From Mustelus asterias (lineage: Eukaryota): DNA of 64,000 nt. The notes under the pieces were generated by a model. That model did not search any database. It was not told the origin of the DNA and saw nothing but the letters and a program-made list of their open reading frames with translations. This document shows positions 1,962-57,440 of the stretch, piece by piece. Within the stretch, counting starts at the first letter, position 1, and each line of letters starts with the position of its first letter. Location: contig NC_135823.1 in NCBI RefSeq assembly GCF_964213995.1, positions 248,001-312,000 on the forward strand. The letters run 5' to 3'. The position numbers and the translations under genes were made by a program.

Positions 1962-2033
1962 TCATTTCCGGTTCTTCTTTTTTGACCTTATTTCCAATGC
2001 AGCCAAATCCAGGGACGCGTAGAGGGGTCCACC
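1962..2033 (-). CDS. Gene A terminal cytoplasmic exon: GGPLYASLDLAALEIRSKKKNRK*
   Basis: Acceptor atatttcccagtctcag, phase 0, 72 nt ending in TGA. YASL motif is typical of immune-receptor tail exons. Confidence 0.7.
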   Translation of the reverse strand, partial: GGPLYASLDLAALEIRSKKKNRK

Positions 2034-2143
2034 CTGAGACTGGGAAATATATTCAACAGAAATGATCGAAGTGGTTCAAATAATGGGCTTTTACCCCAAA
2101 TTAATTCCAATGCATTTTATTACAAGGGGTTCAATGCACTCAC

Positions 2144-4548: not shown

Positions 4549-4650
4549 CTGATGTGTCATTTTTACAACTCCAAATGGAAATAAGGACCAACAGTAGAAT
4601 CAGTATGACCAGGACAGTAATTCCAACATAAATCGTCTGTCTGCACCATT
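4549..4650 (-). CDS. Gene A transmembrane exon: (E)WCRQTIYVGITVLVILILLLVLISIWSCKNDTS
   Basis: Acceptor tttttctctatag, donor CAG|gtgagg, 102 nt, phase 1->1, about 21 contiguous hydrophobic residues. Too short to appear in the ORF track. Confidence 0.85.
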
Positions 4651-11468: not shown

Positions 11469-11798
11469 CTTTCCATTTTTCAGTTGCTTTGGGATTCGAA
11501 ACACTCTTCGTCCAATATTGCCCTGGAGTCCCCAGTTCAACAATACAAGTACAGACAGCGCCGCTTTTCCAGGTTTCCCCCGACACCATGACGTGACTTC
11601 TGATTCTGTAGGTCCCGTCGCCCTCCATTGTCCCGGGATCACTCGATCCCTCAGTGACCAAGCCGGAAATATTCCAGAAAATAGCAATCTGGTTGGAAGA
11701 AACTCCACTGACCAAACACACTAAGGGCACGGTATCATTCACATCCAGCTGAGCCGGCGGGACAAATATCAGCACAGTCGTCTTCTTCGTAGAACTGT
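11469..11798 (-). CDS. Gene A C1-set Ig constant-domain exon
   Basis: Acceptor ctctgtccag, donor AAG|gtgaga, 330 nt, phase 1->1. Reads TVLIFVPP...VPLVCLVSG...IFWNISG...GDGTYRIRSHV...ETWKSGAVCTC; CLV, W, DGTY..RS and W.SG..C are C1-set hallmarks. Confidence 0.92.
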
Positions 11799-11888: not shown

Positions 11889-12215
11889 CTCCAACCAGCA
11901 GTGTTGGTCCATTCTTGAGCGGTTGATAGCCATCTGTATCAGCACAGTAGTAGGAACCCGAGTCATTCGCCTGAACATTGCGAATTTCCAGTAACAATTC
12001 ACCTTTGCCGTGGCCTTTTTTTGAAATAAACTTACAACCGTCTCCCTGACAGGATTGGATATCGATTAGTTTCGGAATTTCACCAACACTTTGTTTGTAC
12101 CAGAAATAGCTAGCCACGAATTCCACCTCGTAACTGTGGTGACAGGTTAAATTCACCGCCTGTCCGACTTCAGCTGTTATTGTGAAGGGCCTTTGAGGTA
12201 GAGAGGGCTCAGAAT
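11889..12215 (-). CDS. Gene A V-set exon including a degenerate J-like G strand (LKNGPTLLVG)
   Basis: Acceptor ctctctagttacag, donor GAG|gtaaga, 327 nt, phase 1->1. Motifs VNLTC, WYKQ, LEIRNVQANDSGSYYC. Intron to C1 is 90 nt; no RSS seen. Confidence 0.92.
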
Positions 12216-12434
12216 CTGTAACTAGAGAGGTTATTGACACATTACCACGGATTATTTCGACATAGAAAGCTGCCGTTTGAAGACAAAAACGCCCGTAAAT
12301 TAAGAACAATCTCATTAATGTCTTCAATTATACTTCCTTAGATTTATTTTCCAAGTTGTGTTTTCTTCGCTTGAAAGGAGGAAACAGAAAATCCCTTGTA
12401 CCGATCACTAAGTCGCATTTGCAGTGCTGTAGCC

Positions 12435-12829: not shown

Positions 12830-12884
12830 CATGAGCCCGCAACAGGTGGAGAATGAGTATCAGGCATAAAGATTGCTGGGACAT
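12830..12884 (-). CDS. Gene A leader exon: MSQQSLCLILILHLLRAH
   Basis: aaaATG start, hydrophobic core, 55 nt, phase-1 donor G|gtgagt matching the V exon phase. Confidence 0.85.
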
Positions 12885-44640: not shown

Positions 44641-47600
44641 AATGGTTAGCACTGTGGCCTAACAGTGCCAGCGCTACTGTTGCCTAACCCGAGTTGAATT
44701 CTGGCCTCGGGTCACTCTCTGTGTCGAGTTGGCACACTTTCCCCATGTCGGCGTGGGTTTCCACCGGGTGCTCCAGTTTCTTCACACAGTCCTAAGATGT
44801 GCGGGTTAAGTTGATTGACCATGTTAAATTCCCAGTAGTGTCAGGGGGATTAGCAATGTAAAAACATGATGTTCAGGGGTTAGGACCTGGGTGGGATTGT
44901 TGTGGTGCTGGCTCGATGGGCAGAAAGGCCTCCTTCTGCACTGCAGGGATTCTGTGAATGTTGATCTGTTCATTATTCCTCATAAAAAGAAGAGGAATAA
45001 TCTGGAACCCCGACCCTTAAATAGTTGCTAAGAAAGGTGGGGTGGCGGTCATTGAAAACTACCAGAATTTCGATGTTGTTCGGTATTACGATGGAGGTTT
45101 ATTAAATGGAAAAGCGTGGATGGAGTTAATACAGATCAGTCAAGACAGACCAAACTCACCGAGTGGCTGAATGGACTCCACCTGCCCCAGTGTTCTTGTG
45201 GTGACAGCAGTGTATTCCAAGGCAAATTTAGGACTGATGCCAGGAGCCTATCACACAGGAAGTGATCGGCATTGAGAATGGTTTTCTGGGTAGAGTGAAT
45301 TGGGGGATAATTGAATGAAACCCCTGCATTCCTCAAGAAACAATTGTCCTGGTGGATGAGAAGTTCAAATCCTCATGGGGTGGATGGACTATCTTGAGCA
45401 CAAGAACTTTTCCCATTTTGAAAATCCCCTTCGTTGAAAGGTCAGTCACGAGGGAACATAGATTCAAGGTGAGGGGCAGGAATGTTTAGGGGGATGTGAG
45501 GAAAAGATTTTTCACTCAGAGGGTGGTGAGGGTCTGGAATGCGCTGGCTGGGAGGGTGGTAGATGCGCGTTGCCTCACATCTTTTAAAGAGGACCCGGAT
45601 AAGCACTTGACACGTCATAACATTCAGGGCTGCGGGCCAAGTGTTGGTAGATGGGATTTGGCGGGAGTTCAGGTCTCGGTGCAGACTCGATGGGCCGAAA
45701 GGCCTCCTTTGCACTCCATGATTCTATGATTCTGCATAATGTACACATGGCTTCAAATACTCTTCGCAATTTCTGTGCAGAGTGATTTTTTGGACCAGTG
45801 CAAGGCGCTGTGCTTTTGAAAATGTGTCTACGCGTTTGTATCAGGAATTGTCCAAGGTTCTATATTATTTCAGAGAATAACAATTATCCAATTATTCAAA
45901 AATCATCACATGACATTCGAGATTCTTAATAGTTATGATATTAAAAATATCATGGGGATATGTCGCACCGTATCAGTGAAAAATCATCTGAAATTTACTC
46001 ACTCGTTTGCCTAATCTTCTAACGTGACCTATGTATTCTATGAACAGTATGCCGTGTCTGTGTAATTGACGTTTGCAAAGTTCGCCAGCAAATCTGTTGC
46101 ATTCAAAGCCAATGGGTTATGCTTCAAGCTGTGTGGATTTTATTTATTCATTAGTGGGACATGGGCGTCGCTGGTTGGTCAGCATTTATTGCCCATCCCT
46201 AGTTGCCATTGGAGGGCAGTTGAGAGTCAACCACATTGCTGTGGCTCTGAAGTCACATGTAGGCCAGACCGGGTAAGGATATTAGTGAACCAGGTGTTAT
46301 TTGTTGGGACAATCGCCAATAGTCATCAGTAGTTTCTTAATCCCAGAGTTTGTTTTTTATTTAATCTAAATTTCACCATCTGCCGTGGTGGGATACGAAC
46401 TCTGGTCCCCATTAGCTAACTTTCTGGATTATGAGTCTAGCGATCATACCACTAAGCCTTCGCCTCCGCATTCAGGTCGGAACATTTACTAAGAATTAAG
46501 AAAAAAAAATCACCATTAAAATGGTGGTGTGGTGAAAGATGAATCATTCTCAAGAGCATTGGGAAAAAGCCAAGAGTTTAGACTAAATTCATTTAGACAA
46601 ATGACACTGGCTTGACGGGCAGAATGGCCTCTTTCTGTGCTGGAAATTGCCACAGTTCTAAGCTTCGAGTCTATAAAATCCATTTACCCGCGTTATCAGA
46701 CGGGAATATGGATTGCAGATAATGTTCTTTCAGGATTAAATATATCAGTGTCCAATACCAGGATACATCCAGTTAAGGCTCGGGACACATTTAATCTTGC
46801 AGATTTCATCTTCATGCAGCCGAAATCCTAAACCAATTACTAACCTGCCTGGTCAGCCCTTAATCCCATCTCCAACGCACACACACACATCCTAAAAATG
46901 TCTATGTAAATTAGCTGAAGAGCCACCGGAAACATATTTGTTCTAAACCCTTATAGAAACCGAAATCACACAGCTTACATTTGGTATTCAAAACCTGTTT
47001 CAATATTTAGATAACTCCGGCAAAGATATGTTTTGAATTATTTCTTGCACAATTACAGTAGAAAATGCAGAATAGAATTTTAAAAACCGCTATGAGAAAT
47101 TAGAAGCATGGAGAGGTGAAATTGCACTGCAGACGATATTCTGTCATAGGATGGCGGACATTAAGAGAAAATTCATTTTCCGGTTTGGTCGCCATCATAC
47201 TATAGAGCCACCAATCCGCCCGAATTTCCACCGGCTGCACTTTCGGAATTTCCCGTGCAACAAGAAGAATGTTTCTGAAGCACTAGACATCCGGTGAGTT
47301 CTCTCTCCCCTCGAGTTAGAGTTTTGGATCCTCGTTAAAGGCCAGGCGAGCGTAAAGCGTCTGTGGATGAAAAGTGATCAGTCCGTGCAATCCACACCAT
47401 TATTATAGGGATGGGCGAGACCATTCAGTCCCCCGCTCCACCCCTCCCCCTCCCCGCCCCACGCCCCCCACCCCCCCACCCCCGCCCTCTATTCAATCGG
47501 TTCATGGCTTAAAGGGAGCTCAACTCACAGTCACCCACCAATATTGAATAATCCTGAATCCACTCCCTAATGTAAATTTAACTGTCGCAGTTTTGAGAGT

Positions 47601-49541: not shown

Positions 49542-49661
49542 CTCTCTGCCGGTTCCTGCAGATCCTTCTTCCGGCTACAAGGACCAAGCCCAGAAGGAGA
49601 AGCGCCGCAGCCGACAAACCCCCGGAAAACAGTAAATGACAGGTGGTCGGGAAGGGAGAAT
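49542..49661 (-). CDS. Gene B transmembrane exon: (D)SPFPTTCHLLFSGGLSAAALLLLGLVLVAGRRICRNRQR
   Basis: Acceptor tctttttgcag, donor GAG|gtagcg, 120 nt, phase 1->1. Hydrophobic stretch followed by basic stop-transfer residues. Confidence 0.82.
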
Positions 49662-51279: not shown

Positions 51280-51940
51280 GACAGTAAGGGACAATCTACC
51301 ATGGCCAACGCACCTGGCCTACACATCTTTGGACACTAACGGACAATTTAGCATTGCCAATCCACCTAACTCGCACATCTTTGGACACTAAGGGGCAATT
51401 TAGCATGGCCAATCCACCTAACTCGCACATCTTTGGACATTAAGAGGCAATTTAGCATGGCCAATCCACTTAACCCGCACATCTTTGGACACTAAAGGGC
51501 AATTTGCCATAGCTAATCCAACTAACCTGCACATCTTGGACACTAAGGGGCAATTTACCATGACTGATCTACCTGACTTACACATCTTTTGACACTAAGG
51601 GGCAATTCAGCCTGGCCAATCCACCTCGCCTGCACAGTTGTGGACACAAAGGGGCAATTTAGCATGGCCAATCCAACTAACCTGCTGATTCATGACACTT
51701 GGGCTCAATTAACCATGGCCGATCCACCTGGCCTACACATCTTTGGACACTAAGGGGCAATTTAGCACGGGCAATCCACCTAATCTGCATATCTTTCGAC
51801 ACTAAGGGTCCATTTAGCACGGCCAATCCACCTAACCTGCACATCTTTCGACACTGAGGGGCAATTTAGCATGGTCAATCCACCTAACCCACACATCTTT
51901 GGAGTTTGGGAGGAAACAGGAGCACCCGCAGGAAACCCGG
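51280..51940 (-). repeat. SINE-derived ~52-bp minisatellite (about 12 copies)
   Basis: Unit gacactaaggggcaatttagcatggccaatccacctaacctgcacatctttg is the internal HE1 segment; the array ends in a partial SINE. Confidence 0.9.
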
Positions 51941-52461: not shown

Positions 52462-52767
52462 CTCTCTGAGATGAGACACTTTCACTGAGAATACTTTCAC
52501 TGGAGTTGACCTGAAAGGTGCAAGTACAGCGAGCGCCGCTTCTCCAAGTTTCCGCCGGGAGGCTGATGTAACTCCTGACGGTGTAGGTCCCGTCCGGCTC
52601 CAGTGTCCCTGAATCGGTCTGTCCCTCGGTATCCCGTCCCGAAACATTCCAGCGGACGGGAAAGGAATCGGGAGACACGCCTCTGACCAAACACAACAAC
52701 GGGACTCTTTCCATGGCGGAAATCTCATCCAGCGGCGGAGTGAGGAGGAATATGGTGGGAGAACCCG
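52462..52767 (-). CDS. Gene B C1-set Ig constant-domain exon
   Basis: Acceptor ggatttag, donor GAG|gtagct, 306 nt, phase 1->1. Reads PTIFLLTPP..VPLLCLVRG..VRWNVSG..PDGTYTVRSYI..ETWRSGARCTC; 35/62 identical to gene A C1 over the ungapped core (hand count). Confidence 0.92.
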
Positions 52768-52866
52768 CTAAATCCGGCAAAACAAAAGGGGAACCCATTG
52801 ACAAATGGAACAGGACACATTAATTGCTCTGAGGTCCCACATCAATGTAATAATAATGGAATTTAC

Positions 52867-53205
52867 CTGTAATCACTAACTTGGAGCCATTTCCGAATAT
52901 TTGGGTCATGTTCTGGTAATTGCGGATTGCACAGTAATATATCCCAGAATCATTTATCCGGGAATCCGCAATGGTTAGTGAATAAATACGCCGTTTTTCA
53001 GAAATCTCGCCGGAAAATCTCCCCTCAGCTGGGCTGTTCTGGTACGCTCTGTAAATGAAATCCATGTGGTTTCTCTCCCTCTGTCTGTACCAGAAGACAG
53101 AGCCAGCATCTTGACCCTGGATGCGGCAGCTGAGATTAACAGGACTCCCCGCAAGGAGCGTCAGAACCGGCGGAGACTGGGACAAGGTGACCTGAGACAT
53201 TGTAA
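52867..53205 (-). CDS. Gene B germline-joined VJ exon (YYCAIRNYQNMTQIFGNGSKLVIT)
   Basis: Acceptor (ct)n ttcccag, donor CAG|gtaaat, 339 nt, phase 1->1. Motifs QSP, LSC, WYRQ, GRFSG, SLTI, DSGIYYC, FGxG. Intron to C1 is 99 nt; no RSS. Confidence 0.95.
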
Positions 53206-55303: not shown

Positions 55304-55346
55304 CCTGAAAGAGATGGAACAGTGCATAGATACCGAGGAAACTCAT
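55304..55346 (-). CDS. Gene B leader exon: MSFLGIYALFHLFQ
   Basis: acaATG start, hydrophobic, 43 nt, phase-1 donor CAGG|gtgaga. Splices to give MSFLGIYALFHLFQVTMS/QVTLSQSP. Confidence 0.82.
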
Positions 55347-55530: not shown

Positions 55531-57074
55531 GTCCAAGTGCTGGCGTGCATTCGACATGTTCTACAAAATACCTCAAACATCTACTCACATCTGTTACACC
55601 AGACTTGGAGTGCAGAGCACGGTTCTTCCTAATCTGGTAAGGATTCTCAGGTAGTGGAAAAGGTGCAGTTAACATTTCACAACGAATGATGCCAGAAATG
55701 AGAGTGTGTAACTGTTAGTGAGTCTTGAAGTGTTTGGAGGTCTTTTTCTCGAAACAAAATTGAAAATTGAGGGCTGATCCACCGAAACATTTAGAAATAT
55801 GAAATGCTTCAACAAGGCAGAAGTAGGATTTCAAAATATTGCAGGATGAGTTCGTCGCCAAGCAGGAATTCAGGACAAAATTGTATTTTGGAAGAACAAA
55901 GAACAAAGAAAATTACGGCACAGGAACAGGCCCTTCGGCCCTCCAAGCCTGCATCGACCATGCTGCCCGACTTAACTAAAACCCCTTCCGGGGACCATAC
56001 CCCTCTATTCCCATTCTATTCATGTATTTGTCAATACGCCCTTAAAAGTCCCTACCGTATCCGCTTCCACTACCTCCCCAGGCACCCACTACTCTCTGTG
56101 TAAAAAATCTGTAAGAATGGGCAGAATATAGAATTCGGTCGCATGGGGAATGCTTTTGATTTGATTTGATTTGATTTATTATTGGCACATGTATTGGGAT
56201 ACAGTGAAAAGTATTATTTCTTGCGCGCTATCCAGACAAAGCATTCCGTTCATCGAGAAGGAAAGAAGGGAGTGCAGAATGTAGTGTCACAGTCAGAGCC
56301 AGGGTGTAGAAAAAGATCAACTTCGTGCAAGGTGGGCCCATTTTTCATTGTATAGTAATACATGTGACAATAATAAATCAAACCAAATCAAATGAAAATG
56401 TGCCGATTCAAAAAAAAATCGCACCATTAAAATCTTTCTGATAATGGCGTTAGTTGCCCCATTTTCCTCCCCACTTCCGCTTGAGACGAATGACAAAGAT
56501 GTATTTTAATTGGGCAGCTGGATAGACACGAAGGAGAGAAAGGAGAAGAAGGATATGTTGATGGGGTGATAGAAAGAAGGAATGAGGTACCTCTGGAACA
56601 TTAACAACAGCTGATAGGCCGAATGGTACCAATCTGTACTGTGCTTTTGATGTAATCGTGTTAGAAAAACATGAAATCAAAGCCATCCTTTGATACCCTG
56701 ATATGTGAGCAGTTAATGCTGCCTCTTTGCTTTGTATGGGTTGCAACAGGGCATGGTCCACATTTTTTCAGTGAGATTACAGTCGCCTTGTTTAATGTCG
56801 AGCCTGGCCCGAACATAGGATGTCCCCAGGTTCTTGGTAGCCGGTGATCTGTCTTTGCAAGTGCACTTACTTTTGAAATGTAGGAGATTCAGTCAGGATC
56901 ACGCAAAACAGAATGCCGAAAATTGACAAATGATAAAGCCTTGATAAGTTGACTTATAGAACCATAAAACTCCTATAGCGTAAAAGGAGGGCCATTCAGC
57001 CCATTGAGCCTTCACCGCCAGCAATCCCACCCAGGCGATATCGCGGTGACCCCACATATTTAGCCTGCTAATTC

Positions 57075-57440
57075 CCCGACACTAAGAGGCAATTTAGCAT
57101 GGCCAATCCACCTAACCTGCACATCTTTATCCATTAAGGTGCAATTTAGCATGGCCAATCCAGCATCCTGCACATTTTTGGATACTTAGAGACAATTTAG
57201 CGTGGCCAATCCACGTAACCCGAATATCCTTGGACACTAAGGGACAATTTACCATGATCAATGTACCTCACCAGCACACCTTTGGACACTAAGGGACAAC
57301 TTAGCATGGCCAATCAGTAAACTGGCACATATTTGGACACTAAGGGGCAATTTTGCATGACCAATCCAGAATACCTGCACATCTTTCGACACTAAGGGGC
57401 AATTAAGCTAGTCAATCCACCTAACCAGCACATCGTTGGG
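57075..57440 (-). repeat. Second array of the SINE-derived 52-bp unit (about 7 copies)
   Basis: Same unit as 51280-51940. Confidence 0.85.

Follow-up and report, generated by a model that had tools for sequence, protein, structure and literature searches.

The window, that is, the whole 64-kb stretch of shark DNA analysed here, very probably carries an intact shark gene of the PRARP family (PRARP1 type), encoding a non-rearranging VJ-C1 receptor that is likely paired with the product of a neighbouring gene and likely inhibitory. We refer to this gene as gene B and to the neighbour, which encodes an A-type chain, as gene A. Gene B was confirmed as an intact six-exon gene for an unsplit VJ-C1 membrane receptor, with a real VJ exon. 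It almost certainly belongs to the PRARP family, and there are good grounds for placing it in the PRARP1 lineage. Taken alone, gene B is an ordinary member of this family.

Fu 2019 is said to describe PRARP as having one VJ exon, unsplit, in which the J motif is canonical and RSS are lacking, a V-C1 ectodomain outside birds with a degenerate C1 in birds, a transmembrane segment (TM) and a cytoplasmic ITIM/ITSM-like motif, in the form of a linked pair, PRARP1 and PRARP2. The products reportedly form disulfide-linked homo- or heterodimers on B and T cells, chicken PRARPs also occurring as monomers and homodimers, and shark PRARP is said to be mentioned in Ohta 2019.

Structure of gene B, gene A and their cluster

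The exons of gene B were mapped by tblastn of homologues that had been gathered with the gene B V domain, giving the following model.

55304..55346, minus strand: leader exon, 43 nt, from the ATG to a phase-1 GT donor, split leader (homologue tblastn, splice sites)
52867..53205, minus strand: unsplit VJ exon, V-set, with an 11-residue CDR3 equivalent and an FGNG J motif
52768..52866, minus strand: V-C1 intron, 99 nt, GT-AG, without RSS
52462..52767, minus strand: C1-set exon, 306 nt
49542..49661, minus strand: exon for the stalk, with conserved Cys, and the uncharged transmembrane segment
49344..49402, minus strand: cytoplasmic exon 1 (homologue tblastn)
47316..47360, minus strand: last coding exon, with the tyrosine motif TLYARL (ITIM/ITSM-like) and the stop

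The VJ exon is open over 339 nt, with an AG acceptor 5', a GT donor 3' and phase 1 at both ends, and encodes the Cys, the W, YYC, the CDR3 equivalent AIRNYQNMTQI (11 residues) and FGNGSKLVIT. Pfam reports V-set on the gene B V domain (E=1.6e-16) and C1-set on the adjoining exon (E=8.5e-10). Splicing of the six exons yields 912 nt with an open frame of 303 aa and GT-AG at every intron, and the product is 86.5% identical over 303 aa to a database protein annotated Mustelus asterias (P0002). The TM contains no charged residue, a Cys stands just before it and TLYARL ends the tail. The exon and its splice sites bear out the original prediction of a V-J-like exon that ends at a phase-1 donor and has an 11-residue CDR3 equivalent. 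Of the two sequons that had been assigned to the CDR3, NMT does lie there, but NGS belongs to the J motif (FG-N-G-S); the NMT sequon is not conserved, being present in 2 of the 16 B-type V exons translated from the shark's own genome. No exon-exon joint was among those listed from four runs of contigs, repeats having filled the listing. In one run, which comes from another organism and is guessed to be RNA, the exon bins are covered by pieces that end near exon edges, a weak hint only.

Arrays of a repeat unit of about 47 nt, abundant genome-wide, occupy positions 51280-51930 of the window, in the C1-TM intron of gene B, and 57050-57440, upstream of the gene, and fragments of LINE reverse transcriptase fill much of the window between 23 and 39 kb. 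Gene A is built like gene B and lies on the same strand, 41 kb downstream.

12837..12875, minus strand: probable leader exon, limits approximate (weak tblastn match, E=0.011)
11889..12221, minus strand: unsplit VJ exon of the A-type chain, the probable partner, with an extra Cys pair and a J motif without FGxG
11469..11798, minus strand: C1 exon, 3' of a 90-nt intron
4549..4650, minus strand: exon for the stalk Cys and the uncharged transmembrane segment
4139..4198, minus strand: cytoplasmic exon, limits approximate
1962..2039, minus strand: last coding exon, with the tyrosine motif PLYASL

Profiles of the A-type and B-type V and C1 domains align with a probability of 100 and 32% identity. The A-type V domains (gene A; L021-L036) have an additional pair of Cys within the C'-D region and a short CDR2, and the FGxG motif, kept in turtle and alligator A chains, is lost in shark A-type V. 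The youngest A-type copies differ from each other mostly in CDR3; in the four youngest, 7 of 12 amino-acid-changing codons are in CDR1 or at the CDR3/J start.

Among the 150 genome matches listed for the B-type V domain, 22 were B-type V exons on C23, the contig whose positions 248001-312000 make up the window, and one was on C73, and non-family V matches did not exceed 38% identity. The A-type V domain gave 27 matches which, after merging three frameshifted halves, represent 22 loci on C23 and one each on C73 and C3499. Genome searches with C1 placed C1 exons closely 3' of both A- and B-type V exons. Over the first 0.6 Mb of C23 the two types alternate on one strand, with about 105-115 kb per unit. 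V and C1 are open and a TM exon is present at 10 of the 22 B loci, and the tyrosine exon was present, within the 10 kb fetched, at 8 of these ten intact-looking loci; the remaining B loci examined carry stops, frameshifts or deletions. The A/B cluster is a birth-and-death family. One A-type and one B-type copy (L017, L029) are located on C73, a separate 7.8-Mb contig, and resemble the C23 pair at 3.2-3.3 Mb; no C1 exon was found within 10 kb of the B-type copy there. Gag-like and env-like open frames of endogenous-retroviral type lie between the two parts of the cluster (L117:8643-9998, L119:3845-5368).

Excerpts of PMC10751288 list PRARP among the MHC-associated VJ genes. In the shark genome the matches to MHC class I, 140 in number, were all on C8, and C23 gave no MHC-I, PBX, BET or Notch match, those for PBX, BET and Notch being on C8, C13, C19 or small contigs. 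Pex19 was not found in the genome, nicastrin was on a small contig, and the 20 stretches of C23 sampled for synteny markers were mostly repeats. MHC class I is accompanied on C8 by two BET and two Notch matches, which suggests that the MHC and its paralogous block share a chromosome. Other unsplit VJ exons were seen on C8 (L061, G000:C8:20457141-20457470; L103), C16 (L102) and C1 (L060), for which our labels are NKp30-like and UrIg-like (both of these on the MHC contig), UrIg-like again for another gene, and CD8-beta-like. The genome also has two TCR-beta-like constant exons, closely related to each other, on different large contigs (L096 on C24, L101 on C22).

Proposed pairing, signalling and diversity

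ITIM/ITSM receptors recruit SHP-1/SHP-2 on tyrosine phosphorylation. We propose that the gene B product would be displayed on the surface of lymphocytes or other leukocytes, that the stalk cysteines would link an A chain to a B chain (or two B chains to each other) in a dimer whose ectodomain would be Fab-like, and that germline CDR loops would bind the ligand. Phosphorylation of the tail tyrosine motif would then recruit SHP-1/SHP-2 and lead to inhibition. Diversity would be created by whole-gene duplication and birth-and-death and not by RAG. All 33 B-type proteins that were aligned have the stalk Cys, which A also possesses, and the tail tyrosine motif is found in 60 of the 76 family proteins with a TM. 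Inhibitory signalling by gene B is probable, and an A/B heterodimer is slightly favoured.

Seven of these 76 proteins, some of which may be truncated models, combine an Arg in the TM with the lack of a tyrosine motif, which suggests a minority of activating forms; by its predicted TM and tail, gene B is of the inhibitory and not of the Arg-TM type. In a few copies (L147, G000:C23:71000-80999; L153; L159) and in P0017, P0065, P0068 and P0118 the Arg stands at the outer end of the TM, and such database proteins often have a short tail without tyrosine, as do activating receptors coupled to FcR-gamma. A 25-nt deletion in CDR3 is present in the own-genome copy that shares the change of P0017.

Gene B could belong to the PRARP family and yet act on its own, as a monomer or homodimer, or serve chiefly for adhesion or as a decoy, in place of an inhibitory heterodimer, a reading that we regard as possible but distinctly weaker. 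The monomers and homodimers reported for chicken PRARPs would suit it, as would the A chain, whose loss of the FGxG bulge and gain of a Cys pair may weaken V-V pairing, and the presence of one tyrosine motif per chain where SHP phosphatases prefer two in tandem. Against it, there are as many A loci as B loci (22 + 22), the two types alternate over the first 0.6 Mb, and the stalk Cys and one tyrosine motif are found in both chains, so that a dimer would carry two motifs. We retain the A-paired, inhibitory receptor as the preferred reading.

In nine intact B copies dN was 0.41 in the CDR loops versus 0.17 in the framework, and dN/dS was 1.07 (0.67-1.75) versus 0.37 (0.25-0.54), with the CDR value not significantly above 1 and the pairs compared not independent of each other. 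The CDR loops are relaxed or diversifying, positive selection not being proven. A structural model of the Heterodontus homologue P0005 (mean pLDDT 78) comprises V and C1 domains and a helix for the TM; the folds of TCR, Fab and CD8 match it at tied Z values of 15-18, which speaks for the fold only. It is conceivable, though we put it forward tentatively, that combinatorial pairs are formed between about ten intact B chains and a comparable number of A chains. They would form a RAG-independent germline repertoire of two-chain, Fab-shaped receptors with diversifying CDR loops, mostly inhibitory and with a few Arg-TM activating members. If this is true, such a repertoire would serve as a living model for the VJ-C1 heterodimer that came before TCR and Ig, and cartilaginous fish would have in it a receptor system of NK type.

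Relationship to PRARP

By profile search, 44 proteins of cartilaginous fish and five more distant ones were obtained, four of these named from salmonids, and a representative library added further V-C1-TM proteins; 30 family proteins, three of them avian ones from the hawk search below, were looked up by name. Named relatives come from sharks, rays, sturgeon, paddlefish, bichir, gar, salmonids, a cyprinid, lungfish and coelacanth among fish, and from caecilian, newt, turtles, alligators, lizards and birds, including a hawk, among tetrapods. The hawk protein used as query gave 67 proteins, the named ones being all avian, and PF07654 was listed in none of the 67 rows of this result. The cluster of a galliform relative includes the record PRARP1 [Gallus gallus], QBF67926.1 (P0283). 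When chicken PRARP1 was searched against the shark genome it gave eight matches, of which the best seven were B-type V exons on C23, with the gene B exon second, and the eighth was a light-chain-like V; pairwise, it is 29% identical to P0002 over 220 aa (E=2e-19). The stalk Cys and a T-x-Y-A-x-[LV] tail are common from shark to chicken (TLYARL in gene B, TEYAMV in chicken PRARP1). The Pfam C1-set is absent from the chicken and eagle proteins and present in those of turtle, lungfish and sturgeon, in agreement with what Fu 2019 reportedly describes for PRARP. The unsplit VJ with canonical J, the lack of RSS, the C1, the TM, the ITIM/ITSM-like tail and the relationship to PRARP1 are all found in gene B. 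Two alternating chain types are present on C23, the A type having bony relatives (97/91); the comparison with chicken was made with PRARP1. PRARP had been named in the original prediction as one example of an unsplit VJ gene, and from the PRARP1 searches and the tree it turns out to be gene B's own family.

Databases label family members as Ig or TCR chains, or as uncharacterised, so that the family is easily missed. A PDB sequence search retrieved antibodies only, and the Atlas generic Ig clusters.

The V-only tree (90 rows) groups the elasmobranch B sequences together (98/95) and A with bony A (98/94), and sets the family as a whole apart from Ig and TCR (93/80), with the loci that we labelled NKp30-like, CD8-beta-like and SIRP-like outside it. 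The C1-only tree (76 rows) supports the family at 100/98 for 50 family rows, the bootstrap being not fully settled. V+C1 trees (40 and 39 rows, chosen representatives) separate the family from IgL, IgH, IgNAR, TCR-beta and UrIg-like sequences at 99/99, with PRARP1 falling within bony B. The bony relatives were gathered with a profile of the gene B family, which biases toward their grouping, and the labels of own-genome outgroups are ours, assigned from sequence features. The AU test rejected the union of B with IgL (p=0.0004), with TCR-beta (p=0.0014) and with UrIg-like sequences (p=0.025), and gene B is not nested in shark IgL or TCR-beta. For V alone, B with TCR-alpha/delta-like V was not rejected (p=0.105). 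The trees took in no TCR alpha, gamma or delta constant domains, and no exon for a TCR alpha/delta constant domain was encountered in the 40 stretches of C71 searched for one.

B, bony B and PRARP1 make up one side of the best tree with support of 63/86, and a shark-only A/B duplication was not rejected (p=0.061); with these values, the sequence comparison does not show strict orthology of gene B to PRARP1. A third VJ-C1-TM group from coelacanth, lungfish, sturgeon, gar, salmonids and a cyprinid stands with or beside the family (P0106, P0126, P0123, P0127, P0139, P0049-P0052), several of its lungfish proteins having CxxC in CDR3; its teleost members would widen the range described for PRARP. 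It is improbable that gene B represents a separate VJ-C1 family that runs parallel to chicken PRARP without being orthologous, be it a sister lineage or a SIRP-related receptor. The 63/86 support, the 29% identity, the unconfirmed synteny and the ambiguous placement of the third group (coelacanth, lungfish, gar, salmonid) would accommodate such a family, but reciprocal best hits, the same domain order, and a stalk Cys and tail motif found from shark to chicken oppose it, as do the single C1, where SIRP has two, and the position of SIRP-like V outside the family in the V tree.

Origin of the unsplit exon and comparison with known systems

According to the original prediction, the VJ exon resembles a V-J joint of TCR or IgL type that was completed by rearrangement and became fixed in the germline, a proposal that found no support, with no RSS-split paralogue seen in this genome and no nesting in shark IgL or TCR-beta. 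An RSS scan found none in the 64-kb window and none in eight further family stretches. In 155 kb of family loci it gave three weak matches, versus 1.9 expected from 30 shuffles, none of them at CDR3. The same scan detected a 23-spacer RSS directly behind TCR-like V exons of other contigs. Two candidates were discarded: an RSS-like 12-spacer match in the pseudogene L018 lies 3' of the J motif and not at CDR3, the count being at chance level, and L004, which matches only V residues 1-92 as a split relative might, actually has a 25-nt deletion in CDR3. No free J segment was found by DNA search, all 14 matches to the J and intron being at known V loci; this search ignores common words, so that there are at least 14 such matches. 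No octamer was found near the gene B leader, the octamer search giving 2 matches versus 3.6 expected. The CDR3 equivalent has 11 residues in 16 of 16 own-genome B copies and in 26 of 38 shark and ray database proteins (10 in two, 7 in eight ray proteins, two unparsed), and 8-11 residues in the 9 parsed of 11 bony-vertebrate relatives.

The lack of RSS-bearing split paralogues in the shark's own genome favours a gene that was never split. The part of PMC2193156 consulted reports that joined NS4 genes of the nurse shark have split relatives up to 99% identical and several origins, a pattern of close split relatives that was not found for the gene B family. IgL-type V and C, close RSS-split relatives or a free J, and a gene ending after one C exon, as in germline-joined IgL, are not seen in gene B; nor are the RSS-flanked segments and the charged TM residue for CD3 of a TCR chain. 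The branch preferred in the original prediction, an old non-rearranging gene, is supported by the lack of a split paralogue and by trees that place gene B outside shark IgL and TCR-beta. Its description as a pre-RAG relic is compatible with such an old gene, but the status of RAG-invaded gene is not shown, as the family is apart from Ig, TCR and UrIg alike and the trees are unrooted and cannot show that the lineage predates RAG invasion. The TM and tyrosine tail, taken as favouring the relic, are good evidence against IgL. The 99-nt V-C intron, likewise said to favour the relic, is a short-intron family trait (about 85-190 nt in aligned family copies, 90 nt in gene A) with little bearing on age.

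It is very improbable that gene B was first joined in the germline by RAG, as an IgL or TCR gene, and acquired its TM and inhibitory tail afterwards: germline-joined Ig genes do occur in sharks (PMC2193156, in the part consulted), joined light-chain-like V exons exist in the same genome (L050, L051, L062), the gene B exon has a canonical J motif and a split leader, TCR V domains fit the P0005 model at Z 16-18, level with Fabs and CD8, and V-only trees leave a tie to TCR-alpha/delta V (p=0.105), but no split relatives were found, the best non-family V is at most 38% identical versus up to 99% in NS4 joined genes, the CDR3-equivalent length is fixed in 16 of 16 B copies, the C1 is not IgL- or TCR-beta-like, the TM is uncharged, the leader has no octamer near it, and the joined architecture is common to sharks and bony vertebrates, so that any joining event would have to predate their split. 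Recent germline joining as the origin of gene B is largely refuted.

[quoted passage not shown] The never-split PRARP-type family of gene B provides a second candidate beside UrIg/UrIg2, membrane-bound, two-chain, TCR-like in layout and greatly expanded in the shark, and the cluster supplies defined chains for the study of pairing, ligand and signalling. No description of a PRARP expansion in sharks was found in the literature searched, which comprised sources other than Fu 2019, Ohta 2019 and supplements.

Gene B resembles chicken PRARP in its unsplit VJ, the Cys of its stalk, its TM without charged residues, its tail tyrosine and its reciprocal best hits with PRARP1, and it has the V-C1 ectodomain of non-avian members. 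The two chain types encoded side by side may correspond to the PRARP pair. It differs from bird PRARP in its intact C1 and in a CDR3 equivalent of 11 versus 8 residues, and also in the number of V loci, about 44 with many broken, against mostly one B-type entry per bird species. Unlike PRARP as described, the shark cluster is off the MHC contig. NKp30 and CD8-beta have no C1, and SIRP has two. The three share with gene B an unsplit VJ-type domain on a membrane receptor, and are listed beside PRARP as VJ-type receptors in the portion of PMC11599192 at hand. Like gene B, the shark genes UrIg and UrIg2 have a non-rearranging VJ exon with a split leader followed by C1 domains, but UrIg has three and UrIg2 nine of these versus one in gene B, and they lie in the MHC and the antigen-receptor complex (PMC12227049, same sections); a clade of B with the UrIg-like loci was rejected (p=0.025), and PRARP is not mentioned in those sections of the text by Flajnik et al. 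(PMC12227049). Germline-joined shark Ig genes (IgL lambda, NS4) likewise have a germline-fused VJ followed by one C1, and their V and C are of Ig type, their products are secreted partners of H chains and, for NS4, their split relatives are close (PMC2193156, part consulted). In contrast, gene B has a TM and a tyrosine tail and groups apart from them.
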